From Escherichia coli (GTDB lineage: Bacteria; Pseudomonadota; Gammaproteobacteria; Enterobacterales; Enterobacteriaceae): DNA of 16,712 nucleotides. Where the stretch lies: the NCBI RefSeq assembly GCF_003334315.1, contig NZ_QOWR01000074.1. One strand, given 5' to 3'. This document shows positions 7,460 to 8,253 of this stretch, piece by piece; the first letter of the stretch is position 1, and every line of letters starts with the position of its first letter. The translations under genes and the position numbers were made by a program. The notes beneath the pieces were generated by a model that was not told where the DNA came from, did not search any database, and saw only the letters and a list, made by a program, of their open reading frames with translations.

Positions 7460-7762
7460 ATTTAATATCACCTAAAGAGAATTTGGTTAGCTCAAACTGT
7501 TGTGTGGATTTTCTGTGGTAGCGGATCCTACCACGACTCTGCAGGTTAAAAACACTGGCAGTCTGAGTGTTAATCGGTATGGATGGATTAACATCTGGAT
7601 GGCTATTTTAGGTCAATTCTTCACCCTATTTCCACTTTTTTTTGAATCGTGTCTCATTCTGTTAAAAACGTGGCTGGAAATTTTTCCTGACAATGCCGGC
7701 ATTCTGCGTATTTATCTTTTGCAATTTTCTGCCATTGTGGGGTATAAAACGCGGCGCGCGGC

Positions 7763-7978
7763 TTAAATAAAAAGCACACGACGTTTCTTTCGTGTTGCCA
7801 CTTCCAGCCGGGTTGAAATCAGAGTTTTGGCTTGTGGGTTCGTCTTAACAGGCGGCCGTGGAGGTGATACGAAATAATGAACCGTTGTCTGCTGCTTAAC
7901 CTGTCTCACCGTTCTGGTGAAGATTCGTTCCCCGCACTCTGCATCTCTGCTTTGCATACCTGCCGATGTTATACCCAT
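7763..7978 (-). CDS. yqgC: Small hypothetical protein upstream of metK, 71 aa (position matches the small ORF annotated as yqgC in E. coli K-12)
   Basis: A 71-aa ORF in the place and orientation I recall for yqgC. There is no recognisable domain, so the call rests on synteny and length only. Confidence 0.3.
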
Positions 7979-8113
7979 CTCGGCGCTTCTCAGGATTCAA
8001 GAGCTGGTTACAGTTACTGAGGACTGAACAAGGGCGCTCTTGTAAAAACAAGAGTTTTCTCGTGGTTTCGCCGAACTTTCACACTTACGTTCGGTTATGT
8101 GCTTAATAATGTT

Positions 8114-8245
8114 ATGAAAAAGAAACCGGTTGCGCAGTTGGAGCGTCAGCATTCACTGCTGGAAAATCCATGTGCTTATGGGTTGTTATCGCAGTTCCAG
8201 GCTGCGATAGTCGTTAACTGTTTTACACTTAATAAAATAATTTGA
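8114..8245 (+). CDS. yqgB: Small protein YqgB, 43 aa, immediately upstream of speA
   Basis: The ATG at 8114 translates to [43 protein letters not shown] with a stop at 8243-8245. It is too short for the ORF track. It matches the small leader-like gene yqgB upstream of speA as I recall it. Confidence 0.5.
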
Positions 8246-8253
8246 GGTTCGCT

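Follow-up and report, generated by a model that had tools for sequence, protein, structure and literature searches.

The speA leader carries two upstream open reading frames

The Escherichia coli genes metK, encoding methionine adenosyltransferase, and speA, encoding the biosynthetic arginine decarboxylase, are transcribed divergently from a 794-bp spacer, which occupies positions 7460–8253 of the 16,712-nt DNA stretch analysed here (hereafter the window; contig NZ_QOWR01000074.1, assembly GCF_003334315.1). The spacer is composed of ~300 bp of back-to-back metK and speA promoters (7460–7755) and a 498-nt speA leader (7756–8253) that contains two upstream open reading frames (uORFs), yqgG and yqgB. 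We consider it probable, if by no means assured, that two translated uORFs operate within a conserved, structured speA leader, with yqgB acting in cis through translational coupling and shielding from Rho, and yqgG modulating Rho. The roles assigned to yqgG and yqgB are read from sequence patterns, which point to both acting, most likely, in cis as uORFs. The annotated ORFs and the Rho-dependent leader are largely known from published work; what is new lies in the genome comparison, whose details open the mechanism to experimental test.

Between the metK ATG (7459, minus strand) and the speA ATG (8254), six-frame translation reveals nine ORFs of at least 40 codons, so that an ORF of this size is expected by chance and only genome comparison can separate real from spurious ones. 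Four small coding sequences are annotated here in E. coli K-12, namely yqgD, yqgC, yqgG and yqgB. The original prediction, which put the divergent spacer at roughly 800 bp, had located two small ORFs exactly, a 43-codon ORF on the plus strand (8114–8245) whose TGA (8243–8245) ends 8 nt before the speA ATG, and a 71-codon ORF on the minus strand (7763–7978) on the metK side; the names it gave them, yqgB-like and yqgC-like, are borne out by their identity with K-12 yqgB and yqgC. It overlooked yqgG (7877–8020) and yqgD (7515–7766), and its description of the spacer as a control region holds for the ~300 bp of 7460–7755, the remainder being transcribed as the speA 5′ leader.

For the genome comparison, loci were collected by a scan with the SpeA N-terminus. 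Among the best 80 of 577 loci, which come from Enterobacteriaceae and Erwiniaceae, 79 carry divergent metK and speA genes with a spacer of 633–1039 bp, and these spacers were aligned; some counts below refer to subsets of 59, 64 or 78 genomes. Conservation over the aligned spacers is high but patchy. Selection was assessed as the pooled pairwise Nei–Gojobori ratio of nonsynonymous to synonymous substitution (dN/dS), with the same blocks read in two shifted frames as controls, and open frames were compared with the in-frame stops that arise when alignment columns are shuffled. Three-base periodicity by column entropy showed no wobble excess in yqgB, yqgC, yqgD or yqgG. For yqgG this test is misleading because selection is confined to codons 36–44, and block-wise dN/dS was therefore used.

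yqgB is conserved as an open frame that ends at the speA start

The yqgB frame (43 codons, 8114–8245, plus strand) is maintained with little exception. Its ATG is present in all 64 Enterobacteriaceae genomes, no in-frame stop occurs in these 64 as compared with 14.9 ± 2.8 in shuffled alignments, and the other two frames are closed in 63–64 of the 64. In most Erwiniaceae, translation appears to start instead five codons further upstream, at a GTG that follows a GGAG. The position of the stop codon is likewise constrained: it lies 8 nt before the speA ATG in 40 of the 79 genomes and 8 nt after it in 36, and yqgB and speA never share a reading frame. In the upstream type, the TGA overlaps the speA Shine–Dalgarno (SD) sequence as UGAGG, and in the downstream type the stops overlap speA codons 2–3 (AUGUCUGA); a conserved proximity of this kind between stop and start is what translational coupling calls for. 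Even where insertions of 51 nt or ~140 nt near the 3′ end extend yqgB to 60 or 90 codons, it remains open as far as the speA start. These insertions, of 17 or ~45 codons, are found at loci L011, L022, L024, L038 and L051 (Kosakonia and relatives) and L052 and L072 (Enterobacter spp.).

The unbroken frame is combined with a dN/dS of 0.92 (0.84 and 0.65 in the shifted frames), which argues for conservation of the open frame and of the RNA rather than of the peptide. Within yqgB, the conserved blocks have a dN/dS of 0.55 (0.86 and 0.40 in shifted frames) and the variable blocks one of 1.2, and the proportion of synonymous differences (pS) is 0.27, as compared with 0.46–0.49 in speA and metK. The invariant codons (GGG TTG TTA, ATA GTA, CAG and CTG), wobble positions included, form the arms of hairpins H3 and H4 in the predicted fold, with the variable codons in the loops. 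YqgB matches Pfam PF11036 (E 4e-33, residues 1–43 of 43) and NCBIfam NF033844 (small_YqgB; 90.1 bits against a cut-off of 35, E 6e-26), both of them self-named families with no known fold. The original view that neither ORF has a recognizable domain thus fails for yqgB; yqgC has no match in an NCBIfam scan. The yqgB start codon has been seen in vitro by INRI-seq.

An alternative is that YqgB is a trans-acting small acid-stress protein, and that its place before speA reflects operon co-expression. RefSeq and NCBIfam do name it "acid stress response protein YqgB". Hemm et al. reportedly found in 2008 that SPA-tagged YqgB accumulates to a detectable level. Over-production of YqgB induces heat-shock proteins, as observed in an arrest-peptide screen, and thus perturbs proteostasis, and a 2026 study in Salmonella (PMC13159126, citing Hobbs et al. 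2010) describes yqgB deletion phenotypes in acid and colistin. Given the tagged protein and the over-production effect, a role at the protein level is possible, and these results count against our reading of yqgB. However, the purifying selection on amino acids expected of a trans-acting small protein is absent from YqgB, in its variable blocks most of all; its conserved codons are invariant at the wobble position and coincide with RNA stems; and whole insertions of 17 or ~45 codons are tolerated as long as the frame remains open. Moreover, a Salmonella strain deleted for yqgB has less speA and speB mRNA, less of both enzymes and less spermidine, and its phenotype is reversed by polyamines (PMC13159126); no mention of trans complementation was found in this paper. 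This outcome is what a cis effect predicts, and it would be explained if yqgB translation shields the transcript from Rho and delivers ribosomes to speA. We therefore regard the trans-acting protein as an unlikely explanation. As to the earlier choice between a small stress protein and a leader peptide for the speA-proximal ORF, the leader peptide fits much better, the frame reaching the speA start in 76 of 79 genomes, and the stress protein is disfavoured by the dN/dS value. By its pattern of conservation, yqgB behaves as a coupling leader ORF and not as a protein gene.

yqgG has a conserved start and a selected C-terminal peptide

The first uORF, yqgG (47 codons, 7877–8020, plus strand), lies antisense to yqgC. 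Its ATG is found in 76 of the 79 genomes and a GGAGG SD sequence in 74, Erwiniaceae included, and its frame contains no in-frame stop in 59 Enterobacteriaceae, as compared with 15.4 ± 2.7 (minimum 8) in column shuffles. Thus, as expected of leader ORFs, yqgG and yqgB both lie inside the 7756–8253 leader on the same strand as speA, with start and frame conserved beyond chance. Translation of yqgG is shown by Ribo-RET (initiation-complex profiling) and by a SPA-tagged protein (Weaver et al., bioRxiv 10.1101/511675). YqgG matches Pfam PF23505 over its entire length (E 3.5e-38, residues 1–47 of 47), a family also carried by 16 of 16 related YqgG protein clusters. Outside Escherichia, most of these clusters are labelled "hypothetical protein"; with the ORF found in 76 of 79 genomes, yqgG is systematically under-annotated.

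Selection on yqgG differs markedly from block to block. Codons 2–28 are almost neutral (dN/dS 0.67), codons 29–35 hardly change even as nucleotides (pS 0.065), and codons 36–44, encoding GASQDSRAG, show a dN/dS of 0.08 as compared with 1.3 and 6.0 in the shifted frames, a value comparable to those of speA (0.05) and metK (0.04, over codons 1–100). Synonymous turnover is evident in this last block among the 59 genomes, with D40 encoded by GAT in 31 and GAC in 28, and A43 by all four alanine codons. A D-[ST]-x-[AG]-[GS] ending is found in 63 of the 79 yqgG ORFs. Conservation of C-terminal amino acids, a feature of arrest peptides, is therefore displayed by YqgG and not by YqgB; neither possesses tandem regulatory codons, YqgG having four dispersed arginine codons. 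The interior of yqgG is C-rich and G-poor, with a C/G ratio of 1.4–1.8, a composition like that of a Rho utilization (rut) site.

Judged from sequence, yqgG looks like a regulatory leader peptide, with its conserved SD sequence, neutral in-frame N-terminus, selected C-terminus and rut-like body, and, if speFL, mdtU and tnaC are a guide, it may adjust the loading of Rho. A more specific version, in which GASQDSRAG is a metabolite-sensing nascent peptide that sets Rho attenuation as a feedback sensor of polyamines, agmatine or arginine, and in which YqgB serves as a coupling ORF indifferent to its peptide, is a tentative proposal that we would not put above a minority possibility.

Rare arginine codons are retained near the end of this uORF, which precedes an arginine decarboxylase gene. 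R42 (8000–8002) is encoded by AGG, AGA, CGG and CGA in 29, 17, 11 and 2 genomes, respectively, never by CGT or CGC, and R30 (7964–7966) is CGA in 58 of 59, with R3 and R12 using the common CGT/CGC.

The speA transcript starts far upstream and is subject to Rho-dependent termination

The speA promoter elements, with hexamers read from the sequence, lie at 7719–7756 on the plus strand and comprise a −35 element (TTGCAA, 7719–7724), an 18-nt spacer, a −10 element (TATAAA, 7743–7748) and a start at G7756; blocks in 7740–7759 are 83–89% identical across the 79 genomes. The speA 5′ untranslated region cloned by Adams et al. 2021 (PMC7815308) extends from 7756 to 8253, its primer GCGCGGCTTAAATAAAAAGC beginning at 7756. 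In the same study (PMC7815308), a Rho-dependent Term-seq 3′ end was mapped to window position 8311, 57 nt into speA, with a Rho score of 3.09 and the flag "uORF"; the region of Rho termination starts at 8110, 4 nt before the yqgB ATG (score 3.69, p 9e-20), and yqgB–speA was listed among candidate uORF regulators. A cis role for yqgB is suggested by these data in combination with the comparison above, since what is conserved is its translation rather than the peptide made, its stop lies at a speA start placed in a predicted hairpin (see below), and the Rho region begins at yqgB.

A further Term-seq 3′ end was mapped to position 7870 (PMC7815308). This end lies 4 nt past a helix formed by the yqgG SD sequence and an upstream anti-SD sequence, and it implies a stable 115-nt 5′ fragment (7756–7870) ending at the yqgG SD sequence.

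The leader folds into conserved hairpins around both uORFs

Taken as a whole, the leader RNA folds more stably than shuffled sequences (z = −2.7). Four covarying helices, P1, P3, T1 and H2, have ~95% of cells paired, with 0 of 500 shuffles reaching their scores and only 28–53% paired in slid controls.

The structured 5′ domain (7774–7866, plus strand) comprises P1 (7774–7798), the anti-SD CACUUCC (7799–7805) paired with the yqgG SD GGAGGUG (7860–7866), and, enclosed by this helix, P2 (7806–7832) and P3 (7840–7855). By RNAalifold and pair counts in 30 genomes, 94.9% of cells in this domain are paired, none of 500 shuffles reaches its covariation score, and double changes are observed in 5 of 6 pairs of P3 and 2 of 7 pairs of P1. 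The anti-SD:SD helix is invariant in Enterobacteriaceae. Such an arrangement raises the alternative that the 5′ domain (7799–7866) is an RNA sensor, either riboswitch-like or bound by a protein or small RNA, which gates the yqgG SD sequence, the ORFs being mere tracks for ribosomes. The three-way structure closed by an invariant anti-SD:SD helix around covarying inner hairpins, the nucleotide-level constraint on yqgG codons 29–35 and all of yqgB, and the stable 115-nt 5′ fragment would all fit a sensor. However, no Rfam 15 covariance model matches the leader (7460–8400 searched, E up to 1), the anti-SD is missing from Erwiniaceae that keep the SD and the ORF, no ligand or binding partner is known, and a sensor would leave the protein-level selection on GASQDSRAG unexplained. 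As a replacement for the uORF mechanism we judge it rather improbable; an RNA sensor in the 5′ domain is possible alongside the uORFs.

The T1 hairpin (8036–8055), followed by UUUUCUC and detected by a terminator scan, resembles an intrinsic terminator (8036–8062, plus strand) 16 nt after the yqgG stop codon. Double changes are observed in all seven counted pairs of T1, and the 8041:8050 pair occurs both as UA (27 genomes) and as CG (14 genomes). This element invites a classical attenuation model, in which the position of a ribosome on yqgG decides whether Rho-free termination occurs at T1 and its U-tract. In addition to the covariation of T1 and its proximity to the yqgG stop, such a model could draw on CAAGAGC at 7998–8004, which could compete with the 3′ arm of T1 for GCUCUUG, and on the rare arginine codons at R30 and R42. 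Yet in most genomes positions 7999 and 8002 of the candidate antiterminator carry synonymous changes for which nothing compensates, so that no mutually exclusive pairing is conserved, and pairing of 7998–8004 with the 5′ arm of T1 was rejected as a candidate antiterminator. No Term-seq 3′ end at T1 was found in the readable published tables, and T1 was rejected as a working terminator on this ground; the termination that has been documented requires Rho and takes place further downstream. Furthermore, yqgG contains no run of regulatory codons, and the T1 U-tract can pair with a conserved upstream GAACAAGGG to yield one long hairpin. Classical attenuation at T1 is accordingly very unlikely in our estimate.

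Downstream of T1, H2 (8071–8094, plus strand) pairs CCGAAC (8071–8076) with GUUCGG (8089–8094) just upstream of the yqgB start; 3 of its 6 pairs covary, and 95.4% of cells are paired. The yqgB ORF itself holds H3 (8124–8184, inner stem 8146–8162), H4 (8186–8192 paired with 8204–8210, covarying in Erwiniaceae) and the 5′ arm of H5 (8213–8219 paired with 8246–8252), all on the plus strand. H5, with its 3′ arm just past the yqgB stop codon, is an alternative partner of the speA SD sequence and spacer.

The speA start codon is predicted to be buried in a hairpin, H6 (8247–8299, plus strand), in which the last G of the SD sequence, the spacer, the AUG (8254–8256) and codons 2–4 pair with codons 11–16. 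Its 15 pairs, with a predicted energy of −21.2 kcal/mol, show practically no variation across 59 genomes from two families. The speA codons in the H6 arms have a synonymous distance of 0.14 as compared with 0.60 in codons 27–119, and S11 and S12 are encoded by TCG and TCA, respectively, in all 78 genomes counted. A second in-frame speA start at M27 is noted in the INRI-seq paper; this ATG (8332–8334) is preceded by a perfect SD sequence (AGGAGG, 8321–8326), codons Q23 and E24 (CAG GAG) are invariant in 78 of 78 genomes, and M27 is present in 77 of 78. Since M27 has an SD sequence of its own, the yqgB-coupled AUG would govern the long SpeA isoform only.

A working model for the speA leader

These observations can be assembled into the following model, which begins with published steps. 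Transcription proceeds from 7756, and Rho stops a fraction of transcripts in the region from ~8110 into early speA. The yqgG SD sequence can pair with the upstream anti-SD in Enterobacteriaceae; once yqgG is translated, its ribosomes would mask a Rho loading site, and the C-terminal nascent peptide of YqgG would modulate how long they dwell, possibly in response to a metabolite of the polyamine pathway, and thereby the level of Rho attenuation. Further downstream, translation of yqgB would keep Rho off the nascent RNA and unwind H6, and ribosomes terminating on yqgB would be handed to the first speA AUG by termination–reinitiation coupling.

In addition to the protein-level data on YqgB already discussed, several observations weigh against this model. 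No published experiment was found that shows dependence of speA translation on yqgB translation or ribosome stalling by YqgG, and, according to the INRI-seq paper, Ribo-RET showed no peak at the yqgB start in vivo. The transcript start at 7756, and with it the 498-nt length of the leader, is inferred from a cloning primer rather than from a start-site table. The dN/dS values are pooled over pairs of related genomes and 43–47 codons and are not tree-based. Exceptions also occur among the genomes: the yqgB frame is absent in three Pantoea genomes; R42 of YqgG is not conserved in Erwiniaceae, and neither is the anti-SD; two Citrobacter loci (L008 and L014) carry an insertion of ~125 nt in yqgG after CRCY, which gives 55 codons and puts the conserved C-terminus out of frame; and a frameshift in Kluyvera (L036) gives a yqgG of 64 codons. 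The Citrobacter insertion lies ~400–500 nt upstream of speA. With regard to structure, the energy of H6 alone is unexceptional (z = −1.5), and because the anti-SD:SD helix, H5 and H6 never vary, covariation cannot support the key helices of the model.

Comparison with known leader systems

In its layout, the speA leader resembles that of speFL–speF (orf34 in Salmonella), in which an ornithine-sensing arrest peptide controls Rho-dependent termination before the gene of the inducible ornithine decarboxylase. Both have a uORF in the long leader of a polyamine-pathway decarboxylase gene, Rho termination and a C-terminally conserved peptide, here YqgG. They differ in that the speA leader has two uORFs, the second of which would be coupled to the main start and encodes a peptide, YqgB, that is not conserved. 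The likeness is one of layout, and stalling and a ligand for YqgG would be postulated by analogy. The mdtU–mdtJI leader (PMC7815308), known from the study and type of data that flagged yqgB–speA, likewise belongs to an operon related to polyamines and has a uORF with a conserved C-terminus ahead of a Rho-dependent 3′ end. Experiments demonstrated that control by mdtU requires spermidine and translation of the uORF, whereas for the speA leader the experimental evidence concerns Rho dependence only. With tnaC–tnaAB, where a tryptophan-dependent stall at the leader stop codon blocks Rho loading, the speA leader would share the logic of a ribosome that hides a rut site at the end of a leader ORF; however, its C-rich segment lies inside yqgG and not after it, and a second uORF and several hairpins intervene before speA.

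The relationship of yqgB to speA resembles that of pairs coupled by termination–reinitiation, with a stop codon that overlaps the SD sequence or codons 2–3 of the downstream gene and a start codon in a predicted hairpin that a terminating ribosome would unwind. Unlike the usual coupled operon pairs, the upstream partner has only 43 codons and no conserved peptide, from which we infer that yqgB is a dedicated coupling device. The trpL, hisL and pheL attenuators share with the speA leader a short ORF followed by a hairpin and a U-tract (T1), but the speA leader lacks tandem regulatory codons, a conserved antiterminator and a mapped 3′ end at the hairpin, and its termination is Rho-dependent.

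How E. coli adjusts the synthesis of arginine decarboxylase to the supply of polyamines and arginine has lacked a mechanistic explanation, unlike the regulation of speF and mdtJI. The nine-residue YqgG peptide under selection, the speA start hairpin and a uORF conserved in frame but not in peptide offer testable handles on this question. If the coupling reading of yqgB is true, phenotypes ascribed to a YqgB protein, and drug-target work based on them, would reflect effects on speA expression. Caution is thus warranted in taking yqgB deletion phenotypes as evidence for a protein, including in a 2026 drug screen against the YqgB protein.

yqgC and yqgD are probably annotation artefacts

The 71-codon yqgC (7763–7978, minus strand) runs antisense to the speA leader and yqgG. 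Its frame is broken by stops or frameshifts in nearly all non-Escherichia genera, being stopped in 39 of 59 genomes within the yqgG overlap alone, and it is not called by the PGAP annotation pipeline in other E. coli genomes. In the overlap, the dN/dS values of yqgG (0.67) and yqgC (0.87) do not discriminate between the two, and the matter was therefore decided by the stop-codon counts. Neither ribosome density nor a SPA-tagged protein was detected for yqgC (Weaver et al., bioRxiv 10.1101/511675). yqgC is thus a spurious ORF and not a conserved gene, the conserved translated ORF at this place being yqgG on the opposite strand. The original prediction had itself named an absence of ribosome occupancy and of codon-level conservation as grounds for abandoning such an ORF, and for yqgC this is what is found. 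Its wider picture, a non-coding control region with two independent small genes, yqgB and yqgC, has in its favour that both ORFs lie where it put them and are annotated in K-12. But yqgC is neither conserved as an ORF nor translated, the conserved ORF over it is yqgG, and most of the supposed control region belongs to the transcribed speA leader, which leaves that picture hardly tenable.

In the literature, yqgC has also been listed as a putative SOS (LexA) gene, in one case with a wrong description. No LexA box is present in the spacer, and a 2024 time course reported no SOS induction of yqgC; we rejected it as a LexA-controlled gene for these reasons.

The 83-codon yqgD (7515–7766, plus strand), annotated in K-12, lies antisense to the metK 5′ untranslated region and promoter, upstream of the speA transcript start. 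An uninterrupted frame is found in just 3 of the 79 genomes, all of them Escherichia, and most others carry 1–10 stops or frameshifts. It matches no Pfam or NCBIfam family, and no evidence for its translation was found in the literature. Thus a frame kept intact in related genera, as expected of a functional protein-coding gene, is found for neither yqgC nor yqgD. yqgD is probably not a gene, and both are probably annotation artefacts, whose apparent conservation stems from functional RNA or DNA underneath. Together with the under-annotation of yqgG outside Escherichia, this makes three annotations that the comparison corrects.

In E. coli OkiPb01713 (NZ_AP042682.1), the spacer measures 805 bp, with 98.1% identity and 11 extra bases, and a "hypothetical protein" is called in place of yqgD; this is consistent with yqgD being unconstrained even inside E. 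coli.

An operator-like block near the metK promoter and the flanking genes

The most conserved DNA on the metK side is a block of four tandem octamers resembling met boxes (7573–7604), just downstream of the predicted metK −10 element. Over 7560–7610, the mean pairwise distance is 0.09, as compared with ~0.4 in the flanks. A promoter-like site for metK is predicted on the minus strand, with −35 at 7634–7629 and −10 at 7610–7605. The octamers ATCGGTAT, GGATGGAT, TAACATCT and GGATGGCT match four copies of the MetJ box consensus AGACGTCT at 18 of 32 positions, the second-best match in the window; no strict tandem MetJ boxes were found within 3 mismatches, and the match is a degenerate one. From its sequence and position, 7573–7604 is probably metK operator or promoter DNA to which MetJ may bind. 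The "conserved core" of yqgD is this operator-like block (7560–7610), which is probably why yqgD at one point resembled a conserved domain.

According to the ORF list and the RefSeq annotation, the gene order in the window is galP (minus strand), metK (minus), speA (plus) and speB (plus), with the spacer bordered on the left by the metK coding sequence (6305–7459, minus strand) and on the right by that of speA (8254–10230, plus strand). Between 6000 and 10500, the sole Rfam match is at 6174–6287 in the galP–metK gap, to a Brucella small RNA family at chance level (19.8 bits against a gathering threshold of 229, E 0.11). At an identity of at least 95%, the metK–speA spacer is present in all 5426 of 5426 complete E. 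coli genomes.

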